A stretch of DNA of 64,000 bases, taken from NCBI GenBank assembly GCA_030640025.1, contig DAOWKC010000002.1, positions 360,119 to 424,118 on the forward strand. The letters are read 5' to 3'. The stretch's first letter is position 1; every line of letters starts with the position of its first letter. Origin of the DNA: Candidatus Woesearchaeota archaeon (lineage in GTDB: Archaea > Nanobdellota > Nanobdellia > Woesearchaeales > JAGLXL01). Below the pieces are notes generated by a model. That model was given only the letters and a program-made list of their open reading frames with translations, was not told where the DNA came from and did no database searches. The translations under genes and the position numbers were made by a program. This document shows positions 5,453 through 64,000 of this stretch, piece after piece.

Positions 5453-5689
5453 ACTGTTTTGTTACTAATTAATAGAAAATTCTATTTTATCGACGACAAA
5501 TCTCTGTTTTGGTTGGAATAATTAATATACAAATAAGTATACTGGTATCATGAAATAGTAACATTTATATATTGGTATGCATATACTCTATACTATGAGA
5601 TCAATGCCAAAGTGCGTGTATCTTCAACAAGATTTTATCAAGGAAAATTATGAAATCAGGAAAAGATGGATTGAAGATACTATTAAAAT

Positions 5690-6040
5690 CACTCGGGGTC
5701 AGCTGAAGACTCTAGCTTCATAATCAAAGATGGGCTCCCATCTTTATTCTAGCAAACCACCCCTCACAATCTTGGGAGCCCTTTGATATTCATCAAATCA
5801 TAAAACGGCCGGATGACTGTTTCGGTTGTTTTCCAAAGGAGGTGAGGTACTAATCCTTCACCGGTCTTAGAGGTAGCGGATTTGGCCTCAAAAAAGGCGG
5901 TAACAAGGTAAATCAATCCTCACTTCTTTTATGTTTTTTGGCGGAAAAAGAGGTTTTCAATATGACTGTATCATGGGCTATGATGCAGTTGAATAATCAA
6001 GAGGGCAGCTCAGGCTGGGTTGCCCTACTTTTCTTCTTTG
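5690..6040. ncRNA. candidate structured ncRNA (unassigned). GC-rich, hairpin-dense stretch in a 785-bp non-coding gap.
   Basis: Stems GGGCUCCCA/UGGGAGCCC (5732-5781), GGUGAGG/CCUUCACC (about 5843-5866) and GGGCAGC/GUUGCCC (6003-6025). Local GC is well above the window background. Confidence 0.2.
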
Positions 6041-6237
6041 AACAAAAAGTTTAAATAGAAATTAAGATTCATTTATGTATATGAAAGGGGTTTTAGGTGT
6101 TGTTTTTTCTGTTGAAAAATATGTTTGATCTAGCTTAATTTCTGTTTATTTTGAAAAACCTTACAATGTAGGTATTCTTGTAGAAAATAGAAAGATTTTT
6201 AAATAAAAGTTTCATTCTCACTATGTAAGTATTTTAA

Positions 6238-6453
6238 ATGGGCAAAAAGAGGAAAAAAGAGGGTGGAGAAGCACTTATTTCTATTCCTACCTCTATATTT
6301 CAAGACCGTGAATTGAGTGTTCTTGAGGCAATTACTGAATATTTGAAAGAAAAGAAAGGAATGCGGTATAGTGAGATTGCTAAACTTCTGAATAGAGACG
6401 ATCGAACCATTTGGACATCGTATAATCGGGCTAAGGCTAAAAGGAAAAAATGA
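6238..6453 (+). CDS. small HTH protein (sigma70 region 4 / HTH_10-like), leader of the giant-protein operon
   Basis: LSVLEAITEYLKE...YSEIAKLLNRDDRTIWTSYNRAKAKRKK. About 45% identity to both HTH repeats of the 60471..61106 protein. Stop overlaps the start of the giant ORF (ATGA). Confidence 0.55.
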   Translation: MGKKRKKEGGEALISIPTSIFQDRELSVLEAITEYLKEKKGMRYSEIAKLLNRDDRTIWTSYNRAKAKRKK

Positions 6454-9400
6454 TAGATAGTGTGCTGAGCGGACAGAGAAAGGAAATCCATAGCTTGAAA
6501 AATAAAATCAAGAGGGCTGTGGGTGACAAAGAAATTTTAGCTAGACAAGAAGCCTGTATAGAACAGAGTTTTGAAAATGAAAAGATTAGTTTTTTGGAAC
6601 ATAGACAATTGCTCAATCGATGCAGGCAGCTGGATAATTCTTATAATAATCTGATTGCAGGTTGGGAAAAGAAGATTGCGAGAATTGAGAGGGGGCCAGC
6701 CCAAAAAACTTCAATCAAAAATATTTTGCCTGTTTTGATTTTAGGATTGGTGGCCTTTGTTTTGGTTCTGTCATTGCTTGGAGGCCGGGGAGTTTTGACA
6801 GGATTGTTTGTAAGTGAAAATACATTTGTGATTGAGGGTGAATTTAGACTGGATTTGAATGAATTCTTTGAAGTGGGAGAGGGTTGGAGTTATTATACTT
6901 CTGATGCTGAAAACATGGATGTAATTATTTTGAATCAAGAGTTAGTGGTGACTCCTGAAGATGGTTTTGTTGGCGAAAATAAGGTGACGGTTTATGCTTC
7001 TAATGGTTCTGATATGATTGAAGAGGAAATTATTTTGGAAGTGGCAGGAGGATTTGGTGTGGGTCCTGCTCCTGAAGAGGTTGTCGAAGAACCAATCGTC
7101 AATGAAACTGTTGAAGTGGTTGAGAATGTGACAATTGAACCAGTTGAGAATGTTACTGAGCCAATAAATGAAACAACTGAACTAGTTGTTAATGAAACCA
7201 TAGCACCAGAGCCAGAGCCTGAGCCAGTGGTTGAAGAACCTGTTAATGAAACAGTTCCAGAGATTATTCCAGAAGCAGTACCAGAAACAGGTATGACTGT
7301 GGATTCAGAAAACAAACTAAAACTTGACAATAAATTCATTGGCAAGAGAACAGATGACGGAGAAATCGAATTGTACTTTGATTTGATTGAAAAAACTGCT
7401 GACAAATTAATTTTAGAGTTCCATCATAATTCTGACAAAGCAGAGAATGTTTATGTTAGCCGGGGAGTTCTTGATAAACCAGTGCTTCAACCAGGAGAAA
7501 AAGCCAGGTTTGAAATTGATTTAGTTGAGGGTATTGTATCTAAGTTTGTGTTGAAAGCAGGAGTCAAAAAGGGCTTTGCTGTCGAAGCCCAATATTCAGA
7601 AGTATTTGAAATTGGTAAGACGATTCCAGTTGTTTCCAGTAATGGTAATTATACTTTGATTGACAGAGATGATGAAAAATTAAATGTGGAAATTGTGAAG
7701 GACAAAGGCAGGATAGCAATTGTTGGAGTTGTGGATGAGCCAAGGATTAATTCCAAGATTGAATCAGTTGCTAATGCTGATTTAACAACTGAGGTAGCTG
7801 CTGTTGAACCAATGACTATGGAAAGAGCTACCATCACTATTCCAAAAACAGGCAAAGTTGATGTGATTATGGAATGCAGTGAGATGGATGTTGAGAATAT
7901 GGTTTGCTTGGGCGAATGGCAGAAAACAGATATTATATTTACTGATAATGGAGATACAATTACCTTTACTGTTGACCATTTCAGTGGTTATGGCGGAGCT
8001 GAGTTAGAAGTACTTAATCTCCAGAGCTATCCAACTTTAGAAGGGAACTGGACAGTTGAATTTACAACAACTGGCACTGCTGATTTAAGGATAACAGCAG
8101 TGGATGGTACGACTTGGAGCAATATCAATGAAGATAGTGTCCTGAGAGGCGGAGCCTCTGGGACACAAGAGGGTTCCCCTCTTCGTGATTTGAAATTCTT
8201 AGAAGTCAGATGTGGAGATAGTGTTTTGGATTATACTTGGGTAGATAATTCGGTCTTGATTGAAAATTATTATTGCAATGAGACAGGTTATGAAACCAGT
8301 AAGGTTTTGACAACTGGTAAACATACTTTGAAATTTGAATTTGGAGATGATGTTGATTATGCTTATAATTATGTGTACAGTGGTGGTTATGATATGACCA
8401 GTCAAGATAATATAAGTTGGATGGGAGGACAACATGCAGCAACTGGCGGTTATCTTGGGGTGACGCTTGACTGGGCAGATGTCAATGGTGATGGTCATGC
8501 AGATGCGATTGTTGGCAGTTATTACAATAATAGCGGCCTGGGAGCAGTATATCTCCTTTATGGGCCTCTTGAAAGGGTAACAGATGTAGATATTTCATCA
8601 AAAGCCGATGCAGCTTGGTATGGTCCTTCAGTAGATTATGTTGGCACTTGTATTGGAACAGGAGACCTGGACAATGACGGCTATGATGATATTTTAATTG
8701 GGGCTCATGCTTATGATAATGATGCTTTAGATGGAAGAGTTAATGTGATTTACGGGCAAGCAGCAGCCTTTTCAGGAACTACAGACATGGACATAGCAGC
8801 AGATGCAACCTTTACAGGAAATGTAGAAGCTTTGGGCATGGCTTGCGACTGCGCAGACATTAACGGAGATGATTATGAGGATATTTTAATGACCAGTTAT
8901 GGTACAGGCCTTAGCAGCGACGGGATTACTTATTTGGTTTATGGACAAAGCACTAAGTTTTCTGGAGACACAGCTGTCAGTAATGCAAATGCATCATGGA
9001 CCAATGCTGGTTCGTTTGGAGAGGCTTATATTGTAAGAAGAGCCGGTGATATCAATAGTGACGGTTATGATGATTTTCTCATTGGTGAGCCAGCAATCAA
9101 TAATACTTATTTGTATTATGGGCAGGGTGCGAAATTCTCAGGAGCACACACACTCAGCACAAGCGCAAACGCAACCTTTGCAACAGCAACAACCTCAGAT
9201 TCATGCGGTTGGTCTGTTTCTTCAGCTGGTGATTTTAATGCTGATGGTTATGATGATTTCCTGATAGCGGCTCCATCAACTGATGGTCAAGAATTAACAG
9301 ACAATGGTATGGTTTACTTTTTTTATGGAGGCCAGGGATATCCATGGAGCGGAACTATAGCAATGAGTACGACTTACAATGCTTCTTTTCATGGTTATTC

Positions 9401-12400: not shown

Positions 12401-15400
12401 GCCTGATGACGGAGGTGCTACTTTTAGGACAATTGCCTCTAGAACAAGAGTATATGATGATGCTAATACAGTTTGGTATTTGGTTTATGCTGAAAACGAC
12501 GGGAAACTTTATTTTGCTGTTGGGAACGGCGCTTCAAGAATACAGTCTTTGAACAGCTTTACAGCTCCGGATTCAAACTGGCAGCATATAGCTGGTGTTT
12601 ACAATGGTTCGCATACGCTGCTTTATATAAACGGCTCTTTGATAAATGTGTCGAGTTCAACAGTCAGCAGCATAAAGAGTACAAATAATAATATTTTAAT
12701 TGGAGAAGATAGTGGCAGGCCTTGGAACGGTACGATTGATGAATTGATAATTTTCAATCGTTCTTTGTCAGCAGAACAAATCAAAGTGTTGTATGAAAAT
12801 AGGACAGATTTAATTGTTTCACAAGAAACTGCTGTTGATGATGTATGGCAGGCATGTATAACACCAAATGACGGAACAGATGACGGGACTGAGAATTGCA
12901 GTAATGATTTGACAGTTATTAATAATATTCCAACCCAAGGCAGACCGATTTTGAATTCGACTGACCCCCACACAAATAGCACTGATCAAAATTTGACTGT
13001 TTATAATCAATCAACTGATGATGCTGATGAGGATGCAGTCAAGAATATCATTAATTGGTATAAAGATAATACTTCATTTACTATGTTGAATATGCCTTTT
13101 GAAGGCGGTTTGCTGGCTGAAGGAGAGACAAAAGTTAAAGATTATTCTCAGTTTGGTAATAATGGAACAGTAACAGAAGCAATTTATCAAGGGTCAGGTG
13201 GTTATGATGGAAAGGGAGCTTATTGGTTTGATGGAAGCAATGATTACATTGACTGCGGAGCTGATAATAGTGTCAATCAGACTGAGGAGATGACGCTGAG
13301 TGCCTGGATAAAATATGATGCAGTGACTGACAATTATGGTGCACTGATGGCTAAGTCAGACGGAGCAGGAATCACTGCTGGATGGAGGCTCCATTGGAAT
13401 AATGCCAATCCTGAATTGAGATTCTTACTAGCTTTGGCCAGTGGAAATAAAGCAATAACCAGTCCAAGTTTAACAGCAAGTACATGGTATCATGTGGCAA
13501 CTACCTTTAATGGTACTGGGATGGCAATTTATGTTAATGGGACATTGGTAAGCAGCACAAGTTTTGCTGCGACAACAATTAAGCCAGCAACCAATGCCTT
13601 AAGGATTGGGGCTGATAATCAGGATTTGAATTTCAAAGGAACGATTGATGAGGCGATGATTTTTAATCATTCGTTAAGTGCTGAACAAATCCAGGTTTTG
13701 TACCAGAACAGGACAGATTTAATTGTTTCCCAAGAAACTTCTATTGAAGATGTTTGGAAAGCCTGTCTGACACCAAATGACGGAACTGTTGACGGAGTTG
13801 AGAATTGCAGTAATGATTTGACTGTTTTGAGAGATTATGCACTTTGTGGAGATACTTTGCAGGCAAACAACCGGTATGTATTGAAGAATGATACTTCAAG
13901 TACAGGAACCTGTTTTACAATCCCTGGCGACAATATTGAAATTGACTGCCGGGGATACAAAATCACTGGACCAGGGGGTACAGGCGTTTCCTATGCAATC
14001 TATTCAGCAGCTGCCAGGACTAATTTAACTCTCAAGAACTGCTGGATTGAGGATTTTAACCGTGGAGTTTATCGTGATTTTGTAAATTCAAAGTTCATTA
14101 ACAACACTTTCAACTACACTCGTACTTGTGGCATTCATCTTAGGTCAGCTAGTAGCTATCTTAATATCAGTGGAAACACTTTTATTGATACAGGAAAAAC
14201 CTCGCCAGCCAACAGCAATGCTGGTTCTTACTCAATCTTTCTTGACAGTGCTGATAACGTTGATATCTATCACAATACTTTCACCCGCGGCCTTGGCTCT
14301 GAAATTTACTTCAATGGCGCCAGCACCAACAGGAATATCAAACATAATTATGTTGACAAAGATAATATCAACAATGAGATCTTTTATTTTTTAACAGTTA
14401 CTGGTTCAGCTACTGTTGAAAACAATACTTTTGTCAATGTTGGAGCTGGTTGGGCTTATTATCTCACAAGTGTTAACACACTCATTACCTTTGTTGGCAC
14501 TAATCTGGTTGATGGGGAAAACGCCAGCAATTATTTTGTTTATAACAGAAATAACACCATCATTGAAAATCTAAATCATAACGGCTCAGAAAGAGTTCTT
14601 AACTGGGGTAATTTTGTTGCTTATAATTGTGATAATCTGACTGTCAGGAACAATAATTTCACCAATCATCATAGCTATTCCAACATGTACCTGCGTAGTG
14701 TAGATAATTCTGACATTTACAATAACAACATCATCAATAGAACCACCGGGGGTACTTACAACTTTCATATCTATCACTGTGATAATTTAAATATTTTCAG
14801 CAATGAAATAAAAGATACCCAAGCTGATGGATTGAAATTAGACACCTGTAGTGGAGCTCAGATATATGATAATAATATTTCAGCTAGTACATCCAGTGGT
14901 AGTTATGCCTTTGATATGTACAGCACCGCTGCTGGTCATGGCCATGCGGTTATTAAAAATAATAATATCTCAGGCGGATCTTACTCAGCATATTTTGCCG
15001 GGACTAGCTCAACTGCCTTGACCAATGTCTCTTTTTTTAATAATTCAATCTCTGGTATGGGGTCCACCGGAATCCATCTTAATGCAGGTATGATTGATGT
15101 TTCTAACAACACCATCACTTGTCCAAATAATCATCAAGGCATCCACCTCGTTAGTGCCACTGGCAACCACACTGTCTTTGGAAATCAAATCAATAATTGT
15201 CGATATGGCCTTGCTCTGCAAAGAGGAGAATCAAGAATCCAGAATAATACTATCACAACCAGAACAGCCACACCAACACAAACTTGGGGAGTTCATGTTC
15301 AAAATGTTGATAACCATCTCTTGAATGTCAATCTTACCAGGGACAACACTGTTGATGGCAAGGCTGTGCCTTATTATTTCAAAGAATCTGCTGCCAGCAT

Positions 15401-19375: not shown

Positions 19376-22021
19376 ATGGGAACTAATTCAGATAGGATTG
19401 ACTTAGAGCAATATATCAAGAAGAAGCATGGTTTAGAGAATTTTGATAAGATTGTGAAGGCCTCTAAGGATAGAGATTTATTTGATTTTTATTGTTCTAA
19501 AGTTGCTAAGGAAGATCCAGAAATAGTTAGGCAAGAGATTGATGTGATGATGAGTGGTGAGGGAACACGAGTTGGTGTTGAGGCAAAAGTTGCTGATGAT
19601 GCGGCTACTGCAATCTCAGAAAAAAGAAGAGAGAGAGCTAAGAAAGTAACACCTGGAGAAACTTGTTTTGAATTTGCTGGCAGGGCAAAGGCAGTGACTA
19701 GAATCATTCAAAAAGGCATGGAAGGCGGTGCAACTGTTTTAGAGATTATGGCTGAAGATGGTTCAAAAGAAAAAGTGAGAGAAGATGAGGTGGTTGGTTT
19801 TTCAGTGAGAGATAATGAAACAGTAACAATTAATGATGCTGGCAGAATTTTAACTCAAAAAGGAAAAAAAGTTCCAAAAGGAACCAAGATTTATTCTTTG
19901 ACAAAGGTTTTGGATGCAAAACAATACCATTTTTCTGATATTTATGAAATTGTTGACCCTGAAGTGGCCAGAGGCGGCATGGGCAAGATTATGAAAGTTT
20001 TTGACAAAGCAGTGGGCAGAGAAGTAGCAATGAAGGTTGCTTTGATGAATAGAGAAGCAATGCTGCAAAGATTTCGATTTGAAGCGCGAATTACTGGCCA
20101 ATTAGAACATCCTAATATCATCAGGGTTTATGATGTAGGTAAGGATGATAATGGCAATCCATATTACACAATGGAGTTTATTAGAGGCGGCTCATTAGAC
20201 AATATTTTACAAAAACAGAAAAAAGCAATATTAGCAAGACCAGGAAAGAAAAGAAAAAAGAAGGAAGATTTAGAAAATGAAAAAGCATTAAAAGAATATT
20301 CTTTGCCAAAATTATTAGATATTTTTCTTAGAGTTTGTGATGGTGTTTCTTATGCGCATTCAAAGGGTGTGATTAATCGTGATTTAAAGCCAGAGAATGT
20401 GATGGTAGGTAGTTTTGGTGATGTTCTAGTTGCCGACTTGGGTTTGGCAAAACAACTTGGCACTGAAGACGTGATGGGTTCTGCTTTAGAGGCCAGAGTA
20501 TCAAAATTAAAAAAATCAAAAAATGAAAAAGTTCAGTATCAAGCAGCAGAAGAAGTTGACGTTGGTTTGACACAAGACGGCACAACCATGGGAACTCCTG
20601 CTTACATGCCGCCTGAGCAGGTTGAAGGAGAGCTTGATCAAATAGACCAGCAGTCTGATGTTTATTCTTTAGGCGGGATTTTATATGAAATATTGACAAA
20701 AGAAAGGCCAGTAGAAGGCGCTTCAAATGCCGAGATTTTTAATAAGATTTTGCTTGGTAGAATAGTTCCGCCAAGTGAGCGTGTTGATGAAATAAAAGTT
20801 CCGGGTGAATTATCAGCCATAGCAATGAAAGCAATGGCAGTGGAAAAAGCAGACAGATACCAAAATGTTGAAGAATTGGCTGAAGATATTAGAGCTTATT
20901 CAGAACATCGAGAAGTTAAGGCATATAATTATACTCGGTGGGAAAAAATTGTTAAAGCTGTGAAAAGACATCCAGTAGCAGCTTGGGCAGCTGGAATTGG
21001 ATTATTTGTAGCCTTGACAGCAATAGCAATAACTGGTCCTGTGATTTACAGTGAAAAAGCTGCTAAAGAAGCCAAGGCCAGAGAAGCTGTTGAAGCAAAG
21101 GCAGGAGAAGCAGAAGCTTTGGAAGAGAAATTAGAAGCTGAAAAAGAGTCAAGCAAAAATAAAGAATTAGCATTACAAAAATCAGAAGAAGCAAGAGTGA
21201 GTGCTGAGTTAGCAGAAGACAAAGCTTTGGAAGCGCAAAAATCAGCAGAAGGAGAAGCAGTTGCTTTAAAGGCAAAAGCTGATAGGGCTGAGGCTGTTAG
21301 TCTGAAAGACCAAGGAAATATTTTTATGGAAAAAAGTAAAAAAAATCATCAAAGAGCACTAGAATATTATTTAAAATCTTGTAAGGCAGACCCTTCTTTT
21401 CCTGAGGCTTGGAATTGGATTGGTCATATCAAGTTTAGTTTAGCACGGCGTGTGGCTGATGAAGAAAAAAGAAATAAATTATTTTTAGAAGCAAAAAGTG
21501 ATTTGGAAAAAGCAATAGAATTAGATAATAATCCTGAAGAAATGGATAAATTAAGAGGACGGGCTCAAGTTAATCTGGCAGATGTTTATGTTGTTGGTTT
21601 GCGTGATAAAACCATGGGAGAAAAACTATACAGAGAAGCAATTGCTAAATCTCCTGATTACATCACTGCATATAATAAACTGGCGCGTTTGTTATCTTCT
21701 CGAAAAAGATATGAAGAAGCAATGCAGAATTACAAAAAAATAACTGAGATATCAGAAGATTACTGGGTTGGCTGGGAAGGATTGGGTTATATTCATTTGA
21801 AACACGGCCGGTTGGTAGAAGCAGAAAAATGTTACCGAAAGGCTAAGAAAGGTCATCCAGAATCTTATTATTCTCTAGCAGAAATAAAATACCGGCAGGC
21901 TGATTGGCAAGCAGCTAATAGTTTCTTGACAGTATTAGAAGATGTGCTGCCAGACTATAAGACAGAAAAAAGAATTAAAATGCAAAGAGAAGTTGAGGAA
22001 AGGCTGGTTCAAGGTAAGTGA
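19376..22021 (+). CDS. Hanks-type Ser/Thr protein kinase with TM helix and C-terminal TPR repeats
   Basis: ARGGMGKI, VAMKV, HRDLKPEN-like VINRDLKPENVM, DLGLAK and GTPAYMPPEQ motifs. TM helix AAWAAGIGLFVALTAIAITG. Coiled-coil then TPR-like repeats to the C-terminus. Confidence 0.85.
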   Translation: MGTNSDRIDLEQYIKKKHGLENFDKIVKASKDRDLFDFYCSKVAKEDPEIVRQEIDVMMSGEGTRVGVEAKVADDAATAISEKRRERAKKVTPGETCFEFAGRAKAVTRIIQKGMEGGATVLEIMAEDGSKEKVREDEVVGFSVRDNETVTINDAGRILTQKGKKVPKGTKIYSLTKVLDAKQYHFSDIYEIVDPEVARGGMGKIMKVFDKAVGREVAMKVALMNREAMLQRFRFEARITGQLEHPNIIRVYDVGKDDNGNPYYTMEFIRGGSLDNILQKQKKAILARPGKKRKKKEDLENEKALKEYSLPKLLDIFLRVCDGVSYAHSKGVINRDLKPENVMVGSFGDVLVADLGLAKQLGTEDVMGSALEARVSKLKKSKNEKVQYQAAEEVDVGLTQDGTTMGTPAYMPPEQVEGELDQIDQQSDVYSLGGILYEILTKERPVEGASNAEIFNKILLGRIVPPSERVDEIKVPGELSAIAMKAMAVEKADRYQNVEELAEDIRAYSEHREVKAYNYTRWEKIVKAVKRHPVAAWAAGIGLFVALTAIAITGPVIYSEKAAKEAKAREAVEAKAGEAEALEEKLEAEKESSKNKELALQKSEEARVSAELAEDKALEAQKSAEGEAVALKAKADRAEAVSLKDQGNIFMEKSKKNHQRALEYYLKSCKADPSFPEAWNWIGHIKFSLARRVADEEKRNKLFLEAKSDLEKAIELDNNPEEMDKLRGRAQVNLADVYVVGLRDKTMGEKLYREAIAKSPDYITAYNKLARLLSSRKRYEEAMQNYKKITEISEDYWVGWEGLGYIHLKHGRLVEAEKCYRKAKKGHPESYYSLAEIKYRQADWQAANSFLTVLEDVLPDYKTEKRIKMQREVEERLVQGK

Positions 22022-36777: not shown

Positions 36778-36975
36778 GTGTTAAAGATGGTGAAAGCACT
36801 TATAGATGTTCATGAGCATACCAACAAAATTCTGAATATTGTTAAAGCTAAACATGGATTGAAAGATAAATCCAGGGCTATAGACCAAATGGCTAAGGAA
36901 TATGAAGAAAAGGTTTTAGAACTGGAATTAAGGCCGAAAGTGCTTGAATCTTTTAAGGAAAAGGAGAAAGAATGA
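36778..36975 (+). CDS. small ribbon-helix-helix-like protein, coupled to the S2P protease
   Basis: beta-alpha-alpha pattern (ALIDVHEHTNKILNIVKAKHGL-KDKS-RAIDQMAKEY). Overlaps the next gene by 4 nt. Confidence 0.35.
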   Translation: MLKMVKALIDVHEHTNKILNIVKAKHGLKDKSRAIDQMAKEYEEKVLELELRPKVLESFKEKEKE

Positions 36976-38078
36976 GAGGCAGCCAGAAGATTTTTAGGGT
37001 TTTTGGGATTGATGTTAAACTGCATTATTCATGGTGGTTTGTGTTTATATTACTGGCTTATGCTTTAGCAACTGGTTTTTTCCCTCATTATTATGAAGGT
37101 TTGAGTAGCACGGCCTATTGGGTGATGGGTATTACAGCTTCTTTGTTATTGTTTGTATCTGTTTTATTACATGAGTTGACACATTCATTAGTGGCTAAAC
37201 TTTGGAAAATAGAAGTGGAAAGTATTACTTTGTTTTTCTTTGGCGGGGTGGCTTCTCTGCCATCTGAAGACATGAAGCCATGGACAGAATTTTGGATGGC
37301 TTTGTCCGGGCCTCTTTTTAGCATGGCTTTAGGTATGGTGTTTTATTTTATTTATCTCTTAAATGGGAATGTTTATGTGACAGCAATTACATTTTATCTG
37401 TTTCAACTGAATATTATTTTGGCGGTTTTTAATATGCTGCCAGGTTATCCTTTGGATGGCGGCAGGGTTTTTAGAGCTTTGCTGCAGATGTATTTTAAAG
37501 ACATTAGAAAAGCAACCTGGGTTGCCACTAAAGGCGGAAAGTTTATAGGCGGCGCTTTGGCCATACTGGGTTTGATTGCAATTTTTTCCGGCCTTTGGAA
37601 TGGATTGTGGTTTGTGTTTTTAGGAGGGTTTTTGTATTTCATAGCTGGATTAAGTTATGAGCAGGTTATAGTTAAGGAAGTTTTGATGAAAGTTCCTTTG
37701 ACAAAAATGGTGAAGGGGAGTTATTCTCATTTTGCTCCTAATGTTGGTTTTGACAAGGTAATCAAGAAGTTTCAAGCGAATGGAGAGGAAAATTTTATTG
37801 TCAAGAAAGACGGCAAGTTTTTGGGAATAGTTGATTTACGCCGAATTGGAAAGTTGGATAAAAAAACCTGGAGCAAGGTAATGGTCAGGAGTGTGATGAT
37901 TCCTGCTGGTAAGATTAAGGTCTTGAATGAAAAGGACAATTCTTACAGTGCTTTGAGGAAACTAGTGGAGCAGAATCTGCAAATGCTGCCTTTTTTGAAA
38001 AGAGGGAAATTTGTGGGAGTTGTTTACCAAAAGAGTTTGAATCATCATATAGTCATGAAGTTAAAGTATGGCTTATAA
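36972..38078 (+). CDS. site-2 protease (M50) with tandem CBS domains
   Basis: HELTHSLVA HExxH motif, LDGGRV motif, C-terminal CBS pair. Confidence 0.85.
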   Translation: MRGSQKIFRVFGIDVKLHYSWWFVFILLAYALATGFFPHYYEGLSSTAYWVMGITASLLLFVSVLLHELTHSLVAKLWKIEVESITLFFFGGVASLPSEDMKPWTEFWMALSGPLFSMALGMVFYFIYLLNGNVYVTAITFYLFQLNIILAVFNMLPGYPLDGGRVFRALLQMYFKDIRKATWVATKGGKFIGGALAILGLIAIFSGLWNGLWFVFLGGFLYFIAGLSYEQVIVKEVLMKVPLTKMVKGSYSHFAPNVGFDKVIKKFQANGEENFIVKKDGKFLGIVDLRRIGKLDKKTWSKVMVRSVMIPAGKIKVLNEKDNSYSALRKLVEQNLQMLPFLKRGKFVGVVYQKSLNHHIVMKLKYGL

Positions 38079-57066: not shown

Positions 57067-58452
57067 TTATTTGATTCTCTTTTTTTTCTTTTTCCTCCTT
57101 TTTTTAGGTAATAAACAGAACAAAACATAGACTAACATGCCCAAGGTAATCAAGATTAAAATAATCTTTGAATACAAGACTGTTTCGTCTGTTTCATCCA
57201 CTTTTATTGCAGCGCTGAAATAGCCTGCGATGGTGTCCAACATTGTTGGGATGCTTTCAATCTCACTTAAGATCTCTTTTTCTACTTGTTCTTCAAGCTC
57301 TTCAACTGGTATTGCTTCTAATGGTTTGATTGTTTCCTCGGCTGGTGCAGGGATTTCAATGATTTCGTCATTTTCGCACATATAAGCAGAGTCAATTTCT
57401 TTCCTCTGCCACCTATCACAACCATCTATCCTGACACATTCCTGATACATGCGTGATCCGAGGCAGATTATTCCGCCGAAGCTGCACTCATCAACACATT
57501 CTGCTCTTCTGTAACCACCAGTTGATACAACATCTTCAGTTTCTTGCTTAATTGCATAAGCACTTAAGGTTGTTGTCTCAATAGTAAAGGTCTTGTCGAC
57601 CTTACTTTGAGTCGCACTCACTTCAACAAATGAACCTAAACAAGTTCTGGAAGTAAAGTTCCAGTCTGCACATTTGTAGAGTCCAAGATTGTTTTCATCG
57701 GTAGAGCTTGTTCCATTGTAATCTAAAGTCAGGGTAATGTTACTGAAGCTGCTGAAATTACTGTTTTCTACGGCATAAACAATTAGATAGCCGGTCAGGT
57801 CTGTTTTGTCTAATCCTAATGATTGACCATTGTCAGCTGAGATGTTGATATTGCTCAGCAATACTTGCAATGAATCATTATAGGCCTTAAACAAGACATC
57901 ATAAGTCCAGCTGGCTATTTCATTGGAATAACTGCCGTCTGTCTGTGTATCTGTTAAGATAACTGAACTATCATAGCTGGCTTGTATTTCTGAACTCAAA
58001 CCGCTCAAGTTAGTATCATAGACACTTACATTCCACAACAGTCCTTCTCCGGCAATAAAGTAGTCACTTATTTCTACTGAATCACCACTGTTGGCATAGA
58101 AGGTGATGTTATATCTTCCAGCCAAGGAGGTAGTATAGTTGAAAGCTACATTATCAGTCAGAGTAATATTCTCTACTGAACTGTTTGGTAAAGTAATTGC
58201 AACCCAACTTTTTTGTGCGTTGTAAGTATCTAATAACAGTTCTACATCAGTACTGTTAATCACAACTTTTGGACTTACAGAATATGACAAGATGTATGGA
58301 GTTTGTACTGGAATAGTAAAAGTTACTGGAGTTTGTGTTGATACTGTGGTCGCTGCATTAGCTAAAGCTGTAGCTAATAAAAAGAAAATAAGGAAGCTAA
58401 CTAAAAACTTCCCTAGTTTTTTGCTCTTTCCGTTATTTCTTATTTCCAGCAC
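57067..58452 (-). CDS. surface protein with signal peptide, Cys-rich module, C-terminal TM and poly-basic tail
   Basis: N-terminal LVSFLIFFLLATALANA. LYKCADWNF domain motif. C-terminal TM plus KKRRKKKKKR. Confidence 0.6.
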   Translation of the reverse strand: MLEIRNNGKSKKLGKFLVSFLIFFLLATALANAATTVSTQTPVTFTIPVQTPYILSYSVSPKVVINSTDVELLLDTYNAQKSWVAITLPNSSVENITLTDNVAFNYTTSLAGRYNITFYANSGDSVEISDYFIAGEGLLWNVSVYDTNLSGLSSEIQASYDSSVILTDTQTDGSYSNEIASWTYDVLFKAYNDSLQVLLSNINISADNGQSLGLDKTDLTGYLIVYAVENSNFSSFSNITLTLDYNGTSSTDENNLGLYKCADWNFTSRTCLGSFVEVSATQSKVDKTFTIETTTLSAYAIKQETEDVVSTGGYRRAECVDECSFGGIICLGSRMYQECVRIDGCDRWQRKEIDSAYMCENDEIIEIPAPAEETIKPLEAIPVEELEEQVEKEILSEIESIPTMLDTIAGYFSAAIKVDETDETVLYSKIILILITLGMLVYVLFCLLPKKRRKKKKKRIK

Positions 58453-58473
58453 TTTACCTCGTCATACATCTTT

Positions 58474-59025
58474 TTAGCCATTCACTCCCCAACTTGTCAA
58501 GCTCTTTGTTGATGTGTCGCCTGTTGTACAGCTACTAAAGTCTGCTTTCAGATACCAATCCTGGGCAGCTGCAGCTGGCGTCATGTCTGTAGCTATTGTT
58601 GCGTTTCCTGTACTGTTAATTGGTGCTCCATTATCTGCTCCGGCAAAGGTTGTTGCGCCGGTTAAGTTCATGCAAGATGGTATGTCGGTGTCCAAACTCA
58701 TTGACAAATTCAGGTCCACTGTTCCAGTATTGTCATAACTGAAGATTGGTGTTCCGTCAGACTGGGCAGTTCCACCGCCGGCAACCTGCGGATTGGCATT
58801 GCTATTAGTTCCTGTTGTACTGTTGAACTCAATTCCTGTTGTGGCTGCTCCGCCACCAACACCAGTTACTCCAGCTTGGCCAGGTAGAGTCAAGGTAAAG
58901 GCTACGACTGACCCGACATTGAACTGTACCTGTGTTGTGGTGTAGACTACAGTAGCAATAGCAGCTGGCAAAAGCAATAACAAAGCAGCTGCTAAGACCA
59001 CTAACAATTTCTTGTTTCTTTTCAT
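58474..59025 (-). CDS. secreted G/T/A-rich protein
   Basis: Signal peptide LLVVLAAALLLLLPAAIA. Confidence 0.5.
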   Translation of the reverse strand: MKRNKKLLVVLAAALLLLLPAAIATVVYTTTQVQFNVGSVVAFTLTLPGQAGVTGVGGGAATTGIEFNSTTGTNSNANPQVAGGGTAQSDGTPIFSYDNTGTVDLNLSMSLDTDIPSCMNLTGATTFAGADNGAPINSTGNATIATDMTPAAAAQDWYLKADFSSCTTGDTSTKSLTSWGVNG

Positions 59026-59084
59026 TTAATTTCACCCCCATGTGTTTTTTTGAATTTCATTTCTTGTTTCATTTTTTCCACCTC

Positions 59085-59633
59085 CTAAATGTCACCAATA
59101 TCGGTGATCGTGATTTGGCCAACGGTCGGTTGGCTGGAAACTTTTGTTGCGTCAAAAACCAAGTAGTACAGACCTTCTTCTCCTTGGTTAACATCGACTG
59201 TGAAGGTTCTGCTGCTAGTGCAACAAGAAGTTCCTTGCTGTGTTGTGGCTTTGCTGATGGTATGAGCTCCGGTTTCTTTCCATTGTTCATATCGTTCCTG
59301 GCTGTAAACAACAAACTGGATATTGCTGTCAGTTTCAAAATGTATTTCATATCTTCCCACGGCCAGCTCTGTTGTTTTGACAGTTGGAAATTCTGTAAAA
59401 CTAAACTGGCCGCTTTCATAGGCAGTTTGTCTTACAGGACTCACTACTGGTTGGGTTTGTTGTTGTGTTGCTGGCACTGGCTGTTGTGTCTGCTCTGGGG
59501 TTTGCTCTGGTGCCTGTTGTTTTGTTAATTTTTCTAATTCAGCACAGCCGCTGATTATTCCTCCAATTAGGATAATCAAGCAGAGTGCTAACATTTTCTT
59601 TTTCATTTTATCACCTCTTTTTTCATGTTTCAA
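59085..59633 (-). CDS. putative lipoprotein
   Basis: LALCLIILIGGIISGC lipobox-like sequence. Q/T/P-rich linker. Confidence 0.5.
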   Translation of the reverse strand: MKHEKRGDKMKKKMLALCLIILIGGIISGCAELEKLTKQQAPEQTPEQTQQPVPATQQQTQPVVSPVRQTAYESGQFSFTEFPTVKTTELAVGRYEIHFETDSNIQFVVYSQERYEQWKETGAHTISKATTQQGTSCCTSSRTFTVDVNQGEEGLYYLVFDATKVSSQPTVGQITITDIGDI

Positions 59634-60474
59634 CCACCGTGATAAAGGCCTGGTGGTATGGCCTGCTGATTTTGGTCATACTTCCTTCAACATACAAGTT
59701 CAGATACTGATTGAGCCATTGCCGTGAATACTCTTCTGGAACTTGGCCAGTATCCAAGGCGATGATATAGTTCCCTGGAGGAGTATCTTCCAAGGCTGTC
59801 ACTAACACTTTGACCTTGCTGATTCCTTCCCTCCTGAAAATTGGGAAATTAGGTTCCAGAACGAATGGATTTGGTGCAACTTCTACTGTGAAATACTGAG
59901 CTGCCTCGGTTCCATTCTGTGTTACTGACTTTGAACCATCAAGCAAAGAAGCTCCGGTTGTGATGGTAGCTTCACTTGGGAACAAGGTTTCAAGCCAGAT
60001 TCCCTGATAAGTTTCAACCAAATAACTACTTCTCATAAAAAAGTAAAATTCCAAGGTTTCTCCTGGCACTAAAGTTGAAACTGTATCAGCAGGATAAGTT
60101 GCATAGCCATAGGCTCCCCACCTGTTGACAGGCGGATTTTGCAGCAAAGGCAATCCAATCTCTTCAAAATTCGGGAAAAACTCTGGCTGCATCCAGTATT
60201 TTTCCTCTATTTCTCCTAAGTTAACGATTCTGCCAGATCTGACCACAGATCTCATCTGGTAAAAATCCTCAGGAAATTCAGGCAAGAGGGCGAACATTTC
60301 CCTGGGCAGATAATCTGGCCTGATCGAAACGCCGGAAATTGAATCATTACTCAAGGCGGTTCCTATTCTTTCCTCTAATTCTGGACTGTAGGGTTTTGGT
60401 TCTTCTTCAATACAACCGGTTGCTGCTAACAAAACCGCTACCAAAACAAAAGCTGCTATTATTTGTCGCTTCAT
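59623..60474 (-). CDS. putative lipoprotein
   Basis: VLVAVLLAATGC lipobox-like sequence. Confidence 0.55.
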   Translation of the reverse strand: MKRQIIAAFVLVAVLLAATGCIEEEPKPYSPELEERIGTALSNDSISGVSIRPDYLPREMFALLPEFPEDFYQMRSVVRSGRIVNLGEIEEKYWMQPEFFPNFEEIGLPLLQNPPVNRWGAYGYATYPADTVSTLVPGETLEFYFFMRSSYLVETYQGIWLETLFPSEATITTGASLLDGSKSVTQNGTEAAQYFTVEVAPNPFVLEPNFPIFRREGISKVKVLVTALEDTPPGNYIIALDTGQVPEEYSRQWLNQYLNLYVEGSMTKISRPYHQAFITVVET

Positions 60475-61106
60475 TTTTTTACCTCCAATTTTTTCTTAGC
60501 TCTGGTAAGAGCTGTGTAGATTGTACTCGGGGATTTGCTCAAGAGTCGAGAAATTTCTTTAATCTCGATTCTTTCTGTTTCTTTTAGGTAGAAAACAACT
60601 GCCTCTAACATCGATACTTGTCTGTTTTTCAGAATTTTTACAGGGATTTGCACAACAGACTTAACAATTCTAAAAGAAGCTGGTTGTTTTTTTCTGGCTC
60701 TGGCATAACTGCCCCAAATACCGCGCTCATCACGTCCGAGAGACAAGGCAATTTGCCTCAATCTCATTTCGGCGTTTTCTTTTAAGTATTTAACCACAGC
60801 TTCAGCCGGGCTTAATTTTTCTGAGAAGATTTCTACTGGAACATTATCTCCAGGGATCTTCAGCAGTTCTTCTCGAGAAACATCATGTTCTTGTAGTTTG
60901 TCAACAATCTTTTCATGAAGTTTTAACAGGGATTCTTTATTTAAGGAAGACAAAATGAGATCGTCTGTAGAAATATTCGTGCTAGTGTCTTCTCTTGTAG
61001 ACTTTTTTGTTTTGTGCACAATAAACCCCTGATAAGTACTTGGAATGTAGTGTGGGTATATAAATATTACTCTCTTTGTAAACTTTTGATACTTTTTATG
61101 TAGCAA
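60471..61106 (-). CDS. protein with two tandem copies of the sigma70-r4/HTH_10-like module seen in the 6238 ORF
   Basis: LSPAEAVVKYLKE...RQIALSLGRDERGIWGSYARARKKQ and MLEAVVFYLKE...EISRLLSKSPSTIYTALTRAKKKL. Overlaps the downstream lipoprotein gene by 4 nt. Confidence 0.55.
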   Translation of the reverse strand: MLHKKYQKFTKRVIFIYPHYIPSTYQGFIVHKTKKSTREDTSTNISTDDLILSSLNKESLLKLHEKIVDKLQEHDVSREELLKIPGDNVPVEIFSEKLSPAEAVVKYLKENAEMRLRQIALSLGRDERGIWGSYARARKKQPASFRIVKSVVQIPVKILKNRQVSMLEAVVFYLKETERIEIKEISRLLSKSPSTIYTALTRAKKKLEVKK

Positions 61107-61184
61107 TAATACTTTGTATGTAGAATTAAGTTAAAAAGAGAGGTTTTTGAGAAATTTTAAGAAAAATAGAAAAAATTCAAGAAG

Positions 61185-64000
61185 TTAAGTGCTTTCGTTG
61201 CCTTTGGTGGTCAATGTTCTAATGGTATTGTCATCAGGGTATGCATTGATGAAATCTCCCCAGAAGAAAACATCTTGTGTTGATGTTGGAGTTAGATCTG
61301 AAACTGCGGCAGTGGGAGTAGTTGTTACCTTTGTTGAAGTGCCGGCATTGTAGACTGTGTTGTAAGTTAAATTAAACATTGACGGCAGGGATTCGTTGAG
61401 ATATATTTCAATATCTAAATTGACATCGCCAGTGTTTTGATAGACAAAGAATGGCAAGGTTGAATTTTGACAATTACTGGTGGCACCGACACAAGGATTG
61501 ACGTCTGCCAAAGTGTTTGAAACTGGCGAATCAAAATACATGACACCAGTAAGGTTTCCAGTTGAATTAGCAATGACTGGGGCCTGGCCTGGGAGAGTAA
61601 CGGTGAAACCAATTGTTCCGCAGGCATCTGTGCTTGTTATGTTAATCACATTAGTATCATTAACATTTCCACTGTGATCTTTAGTGTGCACAGTAATATT
61701 ATGAATTGTTCCACAAGATAATCCAGTTGCATTGAAAGAGCTGTTTGTGGTATTGGCTGTGTTGGTTCCATCAATGTAGATGATGGAGGCATTGAAATCA
61801 TTATCTGTTGGATTGGTCCAGTTCCAATAGACCCAGTTTCTTCCTTGTGATAAGTTTTCCAGATTGGTGACTGAAGATGGTGGGGTTATGTCTATAATTG
61901 TCAAGCTTGAGGAATTAACCCAACTGCTGTAGTTTTCACCATCATACAATCTCATCCCGCATTTCCAGTTATCCCCTACTGAAGTATTTCCTGAATTAAG
62001 AATAGCTGAAAACAAACTTCCACTTGTATAGCTGTTATTATAATCAAAAGTTAAATTTAAAATACCCCCTTGATACCATTCCACTGTTACATTTAAGCTG
62101 TCTCCATCAGTGTCTGTGATAACAGATGAACAATTCAAGTCTGAGGTTGTTAAATTAGTGCCGTCTAATGATTCTAATAAAGGTGAAGGATTATCAGGAG
62201 GGTTGTTTGCCTCTTGATAATCCACATAAAGATAAACATAATCTAAATTAATATTTTCTGGACCTTTGTCGTCGTTATTTTTGATATATAGCCAGATACC
62301 ATTACTTAATTGAGTTGGAGTAATGCTATTACATGAAATGGAATTTCTGGTTTCTGAACCATCTTCTGGAGCTGGATTAATTGAACAGATAGTATTACCA
62401 TCTCTAGCGTCTTTGACATGGATTTCCCAGGTTCCAGAAAGAGTGCCCCAGGAATCATAATACAAGGTGGCTGAAGTAACACTTTCTACACTGCTTAAGG
62501 TCTGGAAAGGAGCGTCTATGTGTGCGTTCTTGGTAAGAGTATCACTAGTGCCTCCGTCTGAAGATATGGCATTGAAGCAAGTAGCATCATTGACATCATT
62601 CACATCACAAGATGTGACTGTAAGATTTGAGACTGGATCGACAATATGGTCAAATTCAAGATAGGCATTGGGGTTGCTGCTGACAACTTTTAAATCAAAA
62701 GTGTCATGGTTGCCACTCATGCCAGTTAAAAAAACCTTGTAATAACCTTCATCTGTTATTATTGGGAAGTCTGTGATTTTTTCTGAGCTGTTATAAGTAT
62801 AAACTTCGATATAGGTGTTCAAACTTTGGTTGTTTCTAACATAAAGAGTGATGTCGTTTTGAGAGATCAAACTTTGGCTGAAAGTCACCCTAACATATTC
62901 ATCATCGTCAATCGGCCCTGACCAGACACTATCCAAAGCCTTTACTTCGTCATAAATATCAGCAATAAAATCTTTATTTGTATCTAAATGCTGTGCTGCC
63001 GTGATATTAATTTCACCAAATCCTGGGTCTTCTGCTGTCAAAACAAAAGTATAGTCCTGGCCCGGTGTTAAATCTGATTTGAATAAAGTCCAGCTGCCAA
63101 AACAAGTTTGGGTTGTAAAATTCCAATCTTTACATTTATACAAGGCTGTTCCTTTAGCTGTTACTGTGACTGTGGCGTTGGTGAAATTAAACCTAGTTGG
63201 GTCAATGGCATAAACTTCAATATAATTGCCAAATTCAGGAACGTCATCAATATCAATGAATTCTGTTAAATCAGAATCAATTTCAACATCATGGACTTCA
63301 ATAGATTTAATGGGATGGTCTTGTGGACTCATCTTAACTTTGTATTTTCCTTCCTTAACATTAGTTTTCAATGATTTCTCCTCATCTTTAGCTTTTCCTT
63401 TGCCGCCTTTATTTAAATTGGCTCTTTTGCTGTGCTCGACTTCTTCTGTATCAACATCTTCAAATTCAACCAAAACATCAACTGGGTTGCCTTCATGATC
63501 CAAAACATCGGCATTGAAATCAAATTCCCTTTGCACACCAAAAGCAATGATTTCTGTTTGGGAGCCGACTTTGATTCTAAAATATTCATTATTCCAGCCT
63601 GGCACATTCAAAGTTACATTTTCCCCAGCAAGGCTTGTTTCCTGGCTTAAGGTGTAATTAATCTCTCCAGTGATAAAAATCGGCAGCTCTCTATCAGCAT
63701 CATGATGGAATACTACAACTAAACTATTTTCAATAATTTCTGTTGAGTCAATGACAACTTCATAAGTCGGGTCGTCTTTGATTTTGGTATAAGTAATATT
63801 AGTAATATTTTCCAAGCTTTCAATCCAAGCAATACTGCTGGAATTAATTTCTATTGAGTAAGATTCGTTAATAATTAGGTTTTGAATCAATTCAAATTCA
63901 TTGTTACATCTTTGCCTTTTAAAGTTCCAATCAGTACATTGGTACAAATTATTTCCTTTAGCTAGTATTCTGATTTCACCTGATTCATAATCAATTAAAG
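61185..64000 (-). CDS. large secreted beta-rich surface protein, 5' end beyond the window. The listed start at 63947 is a TTG inside a domain.
   Basis: The reading frame stays open to the window edge. The LY[KQ]C.DWNF...C motif occurs twice. Many N-x-S/T sequons. Confidence 0.65.
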   Translation of the reverse strand, partial: LIDYESGEIRILAKGNNLYQCTDWNFKRQRCNNEFELIQNLIINESYSIEINSSSIAWIESLENITNITYTKIKDDPTYEVVIDSTEIIENSLVVVFHHDADRELPIFITGEINYTLSQETSLAGENVTLNVPGWNNEYFRIKVGSQTEIIAFGVQREFDFNADVLDHEGNPVDVLVEFEDVDTEEVEHSKRANLNKGGKGKAKDEEKSLKTNVKEGKYKVKMSPQDHPIKSIEVHDVEIDSDLTEFIDIDDVPEFGNYIEVYAIDPTRFNFTNATVTVTAKGTALYKCKDWNFTTQTCFGSWTLFKSDLTPGQDYTFVLTAEDPGFGEINITAAQHLDTNKDFIADIYDEVKALDSVWSGPIDDDEYVRVTFSQSLISQNDITLYVRNNQSLNTYIEVYTYNSSEKITDFPIITDEGYYKVFLTGMSGNHDTFDLKVVSSNPNAYLEFDHIVDPVSNLTVTSCDVNDVNDATCFNAISSDGGTSDTLTKNAHIDAPFQTLSSVESVTSATLYYDSWGTLSGTWEIHVKDARDGNTICSINPAPEDGSETRNSISCNSITPTQLSNGIWLYIKNNDDKGPENINLDYVYLYVDYQEANNPPDNPSPLLESLDGTNLTTSDLNCSSVITDTDGDSLNVTVEWYQGGILNLTFDYNNSYTSGSLFSAILNSGNTSVGDNWKCGMRLYDGENYSSWVNSSSLTIIDITPPSSVTNLENLSQGRNWVYWNWTNPTDNDFNASIIYIDGTNTANTTNSSFNATGLSCGTIHNITVHTKDHSGNVNDTNVINITSTDACGTIGFTVTLPGQAPVIANSTGNLTGVMYFDSPVSNTLADVNPCVGATSNCQNSTLPFFVYQNTGDVNLDIEIYLNESLPSMFNLTYNTVYNAGTSTKVTTTPTAAVSDLTPTSTQDVFFWGDFINAYPDDNTIRTLTTKGNEST

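Follow-up and report, generated by a model that had tools for sequence, protein, structure and literature searches.

Two genes in a woesearchaeal genome encode small helix-turn-helix (HTH) proteins that are likely to be autoregulatory, operator-binding factors dedicated to surface-protein operons, and not sigma factors. Both genes lie in the stretch analysed here, 64,000 nucleotides (nt) of contig DAOWKC010000002.1 from a Candidatus Woesearchaeota archaeon (hereafter the window): locus 1 begins with a gene for a protein of 71 amino acids (aa) that carries one DNA-binding module, and locus 2 with a gene for a 182-aa protein that carries two. An earlier reading of the bare sequence (the first-pass annotation) had pointed to a dedicated family of small regulators, and this idea is strengthened by a specific operator-like palindrome that occurs at these promoters and co-varies with the recognition helix of the module.

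The HTH module and its family

Three copies of one module of ~55-60 aa are present in the window, one in the 71-aa open reading frame (ORF) and two in the minus-strand ORF at 60471-61106. Their relatedness had been proposed from a shared residue pattern, and it survives proper alignment: blastp identities among the three modules are 48%, 41% and 36%, with E-values of 5e-16, 4e-16 and 7e-10 computed for a one-sequence search space. A hidden Markov model built from the three copies retrieves only these from six-frame translations of the window, the runner-up having an E-value of 0.57. The coordinates 60471-61106 correspond to a mechanical ORF counted from the first TTG; the true start of the two-module gene is most likely the GTG at 61019, giving 182 aa, because it is preceded by an AGGGG run of Shine-Dalgarno type and, at 61064-61057, by a TATA-like box, and because the NCBI protein P0244 matches it at 100% identity along exactly 182 aa.

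As judged from sequence profiles and predicted structures, the fold of the module is that of sigma-70 region 4. The Pfam family Sigma70_r4_2 (PF08281) matches two stretches of the 182-aa protein with 38.3 bits (cut-off 25.7) and the 71-aa protein with 22.7 bits, which is below the cut-off. AlphaFold 2 (AF2) models have mean confidence (pLDDT) values of 85.6 for the 71-aa protein, which is predicted to form four helices, and 85.9 for the 182-aa protein, rising to 96-98 within both modules; each module is modelled as three helices behind a short strand or helix. Foldseek searches against the PDB return region 4 of extracytoplasmic function (ECF) sigma factors as top matches (SigR, SigH, and SigE region 4 on -35 DNA, 2h27, with a root-mean-square deviation of ~1 Å over 45 residues; also AlgU with MucA); RcsB/LuxR-type domains and KorA are lower-ranked neighbours. 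The likeness to sigma-70 region 4 suggested by the first-pass annotation is thus borne out by both the Pfam score and the Foldseek matches. No solved structure is a sequence relative below E 0.049, and no whole-chain structural analogue of the two-module protein was found (TM<0.3).

The second likeness put forward at that stage, to the haloarchaeal Bat HTH_10 domain, is not supported: neither protein has a Pfam match to HTH_10 (PF04967) or to the GerE/LuxR HTH (PF00196) at E<=1, and membership of both families was rejected on this basis. Neither protein has a Pfam match to Sigma70_r2 (region 2), and the NCBIfam model TIGR02937 (sigma70-ECF) scores 22.8, under its cut-off of 42.9. Both proteins consist of region-4-like modules and a linker only; the lack of region 2 therefore argues that they are not sigma factors. 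Calling such a module unexpected in a sigma-less archaeon was an overstatement, since archaeal HTHs of the region-4/LuxR type are known (PMC5413776) and 'sigma-70' genes have been reported from Woesearchaeota in the parts of PMC8204110 that treat sigma factors.

The family is large. A profile search of 1.84 billion cluster representatives yields 2243 members at E<=1e-3 and 881 at E<=1e-30, with one, two, three or four modules per protein. A word-indexed search with the 71-aa protein finds at least 200 homologues, mostly of 60-80 aa (many themselves of 71 aa) and including some two-module proteins. Conservation of the helix LLNRDDRTIWTxYxRAKxK reaches at least 90% among 41 aligned sequences, and the family carries the conserved signature IPxSIF...LSxLEA..YLKE...LLNRDDRTIWT. 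Some members are named 'sigma-70 region 4 domain-containing protein [Nanoarchaeota]' or 'sigma24 family protein' in NCBI and JGI. The 19 genome loci surveyed are labelled Woesearchaeota, Pacearchaeota or Nanoarchaeota, and some third-party records labelled 'Methanosarcinales' are regarded as mislabelled. No relative was found in a collection of viral contigs, and a mobile-element or viral origin was rejected on that ground.

Surface-protein operons and an operator-like palindrome

Both HTH genes of the window overlap the next gene by 4 nt, as had been noted before, through ATGA stop/start junctions (AAAAAATGATAG at 6450-6453 in locus 1 and AAAAAAATGAAG at 60471-60474 in locus 2). The linkage to surface proteins extends well beyond the window. 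A survey of 99 loci (19 from genomes, 80 from metagenomes) left 94 usable for a call on the next gene, which was scored for a hydrophobic segment within the first 160 residues of the ORF after the HTH gene. By this criterion an N-terminal signal or anchor is present in 79/94 loci, of which 48 are signal-peptide-like and 31 have a membrane helix behind a stretch of 36-130 residues. The background by the same criterion is 27% (13/49 other ORFs of the window and 55/201 upstream ORFs in the loci; Fisher 1e-20). These numbers support the claim of a dedicated family of small HTH proteins tied to surface-protein genes. Overlaps between the HTH gene and the next gene are mostly of 4, 8, 11, 14 or 17 nt, and the downstream proteins are often very large, reaching more than 3300 aa before the contig ends. 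The link is not universal: homologs do stand beside other genes in ~15% of loci, including a soluble protein of 387-389 aa (L036, L080/81), a small protein resembling a winged HTH (L085/86) and a second HTH gene (L002, L035, L072).

The promoters of these genes share a sequence element. Counts of k-mers on 82 non-redundant 160-nt upstream regions, compared with shuffles, show that 8-mers of TACTTACAATGTAAGTA occur in 42-53 of the 82 regions, with fewer than one expected from the shuffles. The element is a perfect 8+1+8 palindrome of 17 bp, TACTTACA-W-TGTAAGTA, with the consensus TACTTACAWTGTAAGTA. Allowing up to 3 mismatches, there are 172 copies in 803 kb of loci, and 165 of these fall in the 400-nt stretches upstream of modules, which together cover 7% of the sequence. 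The seven stray copies include one that lies 16 nt before the start of a 2203-aa giant protein with four C-terminal modules (L016) and two that lie ~450 nt upstream of the module of L031. Sites mostly come behind a TATA-like box: where this box is an exact TATA 8-mer (51 sites), the spacing to the site is -2 to +7 nt in 42 cases. The start codon follows ~12-30 nt beyond the start of the site, and several promoters contain 2-5 tandem units of TATA box and site.

Operator-like sites are present at the promoters of both HTH genes of the window and at no other promoter in it. In locus 1 the TGTAGG variant of the distal site is conserved in the closest relative, L020. In locus 2 the sites are of a variant form, YTACAW-N4-AGTA, that has 6 matches in the window against 0.66 expected (0/100 shuffles reach 6), with 4 of the 6 at 61037-61123; the same variant occurs at the orthologous promoters of L101, L102/103 and L104/105.

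The form of the site follows that of the recognition helix. Where all modules have the canonical helix (RTIWT), the site is a palindrome with a TGTA or CGTA core in 47 loci and has another core in 5, which form one GC-richer clade with degenerate sites. Where one module has a variant helix, the site is asymmetric in 12 loci and palindromic in 1 (Fisher 2e-8 for the association, a statistic that ignores kinship). In one variant clade (L063, L084, L087, L096, L097) the helix is RTIWG/D...S.A.EK and the site TTACAT-AGCG-AGTA. A second variant clade (the window, L101, L102/103, L104/105), whose proteins are 40-51% identical, combines the helices RGIWG/S and STIY/WT with the site CTACAW-N4-AGTA, one copy of which lies 6-8 nt after the TATA box. 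As would be expected of insulated regulators, the two paralogues of the window genome differ in both helix and site.

These observations suggest a regulatory circuit. Each HTH gene heads an operon for surface or secreted proteins and would be translationally coupled to the genes that follow; its product would bind its own promoter, at an operator placed behind the TATA box and before the transcription start. The canonical helix (NRDDRTIWTxYxRAKKK) would read the 17-bp palindrome, either as a dimer of one-module proteins or through two like modules in one chain; for the 71-aa protein the predicted preference is TTACAATGTA(A/G)G and the predicted target DNA TACTTACAATGTAAGTA. The 182-aa protein, with its unlike helices RGIWGSY and STIYTAL, would read the asymmetric CTACAW-N4-AGTA, its predicted target DNA being CTACATTCCAAGTA. 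By likeness to the archaeal repressors MDR1, Phr and LrpA, occupation of a site between TATA box and start would block the recruitment of RNA polymerase, and the resulting negative autoregulation would set the dose of the co-translated surface proteins, which translational coupling would keep in fixed proportion.

Table 1. Genes, modules and promoter elements of the two HTH loci in the window
Feature	Position	Strand	Remarks
Single-module sigma-4-like HTH gene, 71 aa	6238..6453	+	ORF; recognition helix LLNRDDRTIWTSYNRAKAKRKK
TATA-like box TTTAAATA of the 71-aa gene	6198..6205	+	Read from sequence; TATA-then-operator layout as in related loci
Proximal operator-like site TTCTCACTATGTAAGTA	6215..6231	.	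9 nt after the TATA-like box, 6 nt before ATG; matches right half of TACTTACAWTGTAAGTA
Distal operator-like palindrome ACCTTACAATGTAGGTA	6158..6174	.	13-mer, 1 mismatch
Giant surface protein, 4289 aa	6450..19319	+	ATGA-coupled to the 71-aa gene; Laminin_G_3 (three), FG-GAP, Beta_helix, NosD; adhesin-like ectodomain
Two-module HTH gene, 182 aa and stop	60471..61019	-	Helical N-terminal linker (residues ~18-52), then two modules
Module 1 of the 182-aa protein	60666-60845	-	
Module 2 of the 182-aa protein	60474-60656	-	
TATA-like box TTTATATA of the two-module gene	61057..61064	-	Upstream of the GTG at 61019
Four variant sites YTACAW-N4-AGTA	61110-61123, 61090-61103, 61068-61081, 61037-61050	-	Last one 6 nt after the TATA-like box
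Secreted lipoprotein-like protein, 283 aa	59623..60474	-	First gene after the two-module HTH gene, ATGA-coupled; starts MKRQIIAAFVLVAVLLAATGC
Rest of the locus-2 operon: 173-, 183- and 461-aa proteins	57067..59606	-	First two with signal-peptide-like N-termini
C-terminal 938 codons of a 1456-aa surface protein	61185..64000	-	Gene continues past the window end

The features of both loci are collected in Table 1. The 71-aa gene is preceded by a 785-nt intergenic region (5453-6237) that separates it from a gene for a Rad3-type helicase; the region is long for a compact genome, and both operator-like sites as well as the TATA-like box lie towards its 3' end. Right behind the 4289-aa gene, an 881-aa protein (19376-22021, plus strand) combines a Ser/Thr protein kinase domain, a membrane helix (~residue 534) and C-terminal tetratricopeptide repeats; this transmembrane kinase could be part of the same surface-sensing unit. 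In locus 2 the operon of 283-, 173-, 183- and 461-aa proteins is kept in order and sequence in L101 with 42-59% identity, including a 58% identical orthologue of the 283-aa protein at the same place. The gene for the 1456-aa surface protein ends 165 nt upstream of the start codon of the two-module gene. The genome is AT-rich (31-42% GC), and the window encodes an archaeal AlaRS and Elp3. No tRNA or Rfam family was found anywhere in the window, and RNA-based explanations were dropped for this reason.

In L037, L058, L062 and L045 the promoter regions are built of 3-5 tandem units of ~42-58 bp, each with a TATA-like box followed by the 17-bp palindrome; such units may be multiple promoters or cooperative binding arrays. 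Small putative DNA-binding proteins of other kinds also stand before large surface-protein genes. On the same contig, past the window end, a 90-aa protein (L100:1014-1286) precedes a 1180-aa membrane protein in the same overlapping layout; it has weak ribbon-helix-helix-like matches to RepB-RCR_reg and DUF6364, both below cut-off, and a palindrome of its own upstream (GTATACTTCTATAGAAGTATA). In L101 a 62-aa AbrB/MazE-like protein (8536-8724; match below cut-off) precedes a protein of more than 2045 aa, and L072 is a further case of a small putative DNA-binding protein heading a giant surface-protein gene. In these genomes, giant surface genes may be paired with small DNA-binding proteins as a general rule.

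Membrane-linked relatives and competing explanations

In at least 20 relatives the modules are part of the surface protein itself. In L009, L016, L017 and L018, proteins of 473+ to 2788+ aa end in two or four modules, and 16 of the 150 best cluster representatives are proteins of 655-5919 aa with 2-4 C-terminal modules. The layout is the same in every case: a conserved segment, a hydrophobic stretch of 12-19 residues, a run of arginine and lysine (RRKKK-type) and the modules, so that DNA-binding modules and a membrane helix are joined in one polypeptide (L009, L016, L017, L018, P0122-P0267). By the positive-inside rule, the basic run after the membrane helix would place the modules on the cytoplasmic side. 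Several of the tailed giants have a further membrane helix near the N-terminus, at residue ~90, and with both helices they would have an N-in/C-in topology. The first-pass annotation had offered DNA tethering as an alternative role for the HTH proteins; this gains a concrete basis from relatives whose modules tail giant surface proteins behind a C-terminal membrane helix. The segment just outside that helix reads ...GQEELY(F/Y)C...(Q)xYST..G(S/A/P)W.I.I in all tailed giants; it is placed like a sorting or processing signal and matched nothing nameable. The 1456-aa protein of locus 2 shares internal domains with the tailed giants (63% identity over 128 aa with L016, 43% over 167 aa with L009). 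It has no pre-helix segment like that of L016 and L009, and the idea that locus 2 is a split version of the fused giants, being only partly supported, was not adopted.

A second link to the membrane is seen in the downstream partners. The 4289-aa protein begins with a ~90-aa helical domain without a hydrophobic stretch, followed by a membrane helix at residues 92-110. This arrangement of a regulator gene and a single-pass membrane partner, in which the N-terminal domain would face the cytoplasm, occurs in 31/94 loci, and in 12 of these 31 partners (the 4289-aa protein among them) the N-terminal domain of ~80-90 aa, which the membrane helix follows, belongs to one family connected by phmmer. 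Partners that share the domain range from ~190 aa, with no large ectodomain, to 4289 aa. Pfam searches with nine of the domains gave no family above cut-off, and a profile of all 12 gave nothing significant against PDB sequences. A GxI(T/S)xxEYDxLL pattern had brought the SHOCT domain into consideration, which was dropped as no Pfam SHOCT match was obtained. In L010, a different 78-aa LuxR/sigma-4-like HTH protein (13411-13647; LTEKELQVLMLRQEG...) stands before a second protein of the 'N-terminal domain plus membrane helix' type and a AANDPGHDSLYV secreted protein; the partner cassette may be paired with more than one HTH type.

Several points weigh against the proposed operator-binding role and its extension to the membrane. 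The covariation of helix and site rests on ~3-4 independent clades, without phylogenetic correction, and 28/93 loci (23 canonical, 5 variant) have no site under the search pattern. The sites of locus 1 are off consensus, the distal 17-mer having 3 mismatches and the proximal site only a good right half. Counted over the whole window, the 13-mer occurs 4 times against 2.35 expected, which is not above chance, and its significance therefore comes from its position and its conservation across loci. Direct binding of the modules to the sites is most likely, although some other factor could recognise the motif; the regulatory effect is probably repression, as read from the position of the site only. 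The HTH genes of the window encode free proteins that are neither fused nor membrane-anchored, and no homology of the partner N-terminal domain to known anti-sigma domains was found in Pfam or among PDB sequences.

One alternative extends the operator-binding model rather than excluding it. The module, fused or docked at the membrane, would serve as a tethered signalling device that is released to the operator on host contact or envelope stress, for example by a site-2 protease, much as in ECF sigma/anti-sigma pairs or in regulated proteolysis of the Notch/SREBP type. The C-terminal fusions behind a membrane helix and basic run and the homologous N-terminal domain and membrane helix of 12 diverse downstream partners speak for it, as does the presence of M50 site-2 protease genes in the window (36972-38078, plus strand) and beside L102/L103. 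Yet M50 proteases are common across archaea, the partner domain has no similarity to anti-sigma domains in the Pfam and PDB searches, and cells of this small size might allow a tethered HTH to contact DNA without release; this scenario is possible but clearly less probable than the operator-binding model. The M50 gene of the window has a weak CBS match, below cut-off, and the second M50 gene lies ~3 kb from the HTH gene (L102:4017-4871, L103:4034-4888). These genes are relevant only if tethered forms are released by proteolysis, and their presence may be a coincidence.

An improbable alternative is a structural role, in which the modules anchor operon DNA at the membrane for in-place transcription, translation and export of long surface proteins, or link the nucleoid to attachment structures, with regulation being secondary. 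It would account for the modules that tail giant surface proteins, for promoters with arrays of 2-5 sites and for sites that are found only in cis to the module genes. However, most family members are free soluble proteins of 70-180 aa without a membrane segment, the site is exactly between TATA box and start, as is typical of a regulator, and the modules of the fused giants are translated last and thus too late to aid export of the same molecule.

It is very unlikely that the module is a sigma-like promoter-specificity subunit that recruits the archaeal machinery to palindrome-marked promoters as an activator or true initiation factor, because region 2 is absent and the site is downstream of the TATA box, a position unusual for archaeal activators. 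The sigma-4 fold and the tight coupling of motif and TATA box would suit such a subunit, and sigma factors in Woesearchaeota are raised in the sections of PMC8204110 on sigma, but neither protein has a core-binding domain, the sigma70-ECF score is under its cut-off, the palindrome suits a dimeric regulator and canonical TATA-like boxes are present. Finally, the notion that generic AT-rich promoter words and a generic HTH occur together by chance, which the low GC content of the genome and the window-wide 13-mer count would allow, has a negligible probability and is refuted by the enrichment of the motif over shuffles, by its position upstream of modules, by the covariation of helix and site and by a near-invariant helix across the 2243 family representatives.

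Comparison with known regulators and implications

Operator binding by dedicated regulators thus remains the preferred interpretation, and it can be set against several known systems. Archaeal repressors such as MDR1, Phr and LrpA bind between the TATA box and the start site and block polymerase recruitment. The family described here has the same site position (predicted at -2 to +7 nt after the TATA box) and likewise targets its own promoter; those repressors use DtxR, winged HTH and Lrp folds, whereas this family is of the sigma-4 type and its regulation is predicted only. Among archaeal HTHs of the region-4/LuxR class, Tfx, Bat HTH_10 and LuxR solos act or are predicted to act as ordinary transcription regulators (PMC5413776). 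The present family differs from them in signature, taxonomic range and gene context, besides the lack of HTH_10 and GerE matches at E<=1.

A further comparison is with ECF sigma factors. Their region 4 (PF08281; E. coli SigE region 4 on -35 DNA, PDB 2h27) has the same four-helix HTH fold and a similar sequence pattern, and ECF sigma/anti-sigma pairs have the same gene layout, the HTH gene standing before the gene of a co-translated membrane protein that has one membrane pass and an N-terminal domain of ~90 aa. In contrast to ECF sigma factors, this family lacks sigma region 2, occurs in archaeal hosts with TBP/TFB-type promoters in 1-4 tandem copies and appears to target a palindrome downstream of the TATA box instead of a -35 element; the partner domain has no Pfam or PDB match that would relate it to known anti-sigma domains such as ASD/ZAS and RseA_N. 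For the one-module proteins, the N-terminal domain of the downstream membrane protein would be the candidate docking partner in this ECF-like layout.

The fused relatives invite a different comparison. ToxR, CadC and TcpP of bacteria are membrane-bound one-component regulators that, like the fused relatives, unite an extracytoplasmic part, one membrane helix and a DNA-binding domain in one polypeptide. ToxR-type proteins have an N-terminal winged helix of the OmpR type and a small periplasmic sensor; here, adhesin-like proteins as long as 5919 aa end in 2-4 modules of the sigma-4 type, and the window copies are free. A fused regulator would be tethered to the membrane and complete only once the giant protein is finished. 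The cytoplasmic location of the tail and of the N-terminal domain, and with it any tethering or release, is deduced from sequence features. More tentatively, giant adhesin-like proteins of Woesearchaeota and Pacearchaeota that carry or are paired with modules reading an operator at their own promoter might form a one-protein line from surface to transcription, possibly starting from host contact, either through binding while tethered or through a regulated release of the tail.

Neither the fold nor the presence of sigma-like genes in Woesearchaeota is new. Castelle et al. 2021 (PMC8204110) describe, in the passages around 'sigma', a 'sigma-70' family (fam00359) that is prevalent in Woesearchaeota, for which no anti-sigma factor was found and whose mechanism was unclear. 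These are possibly the same proteins; the same passages treat fam00359 as sigma factors and do not mention an operator, a linkage to surface operons or giant fusions. In the literature searched, nothing was found on these proteins as region-4-only operator-binding proteins, on the 17-bp palindrome or its clade-specific variants, on a strong linkage to surface-protein operons or on modules fused repeatedly to the inner ends of giant surface proteins.

The model turns the unexplained 'sigma-70-like' genes of Woesearchaeota, as presented in those passages of PMC8204110, into a directly testable proposal. If binding is confirmed, the family would offer a ready-made pair of protein and DNA for biochemistry and a possible case of an adhesin that carries a membrane-tethered transcription factor. 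DPANN archaea have small genomes with few recognisable regulators and are thought to depend on surface contact with their hosts. For these uncultured archaea, confirmed binding would provide the first candidate regulon logic for surface proteins and, if the proposed mechanism is true, an archaeal counterpart of the ECF sigma/anti-sigma gene layout that is built without a sigma factor.

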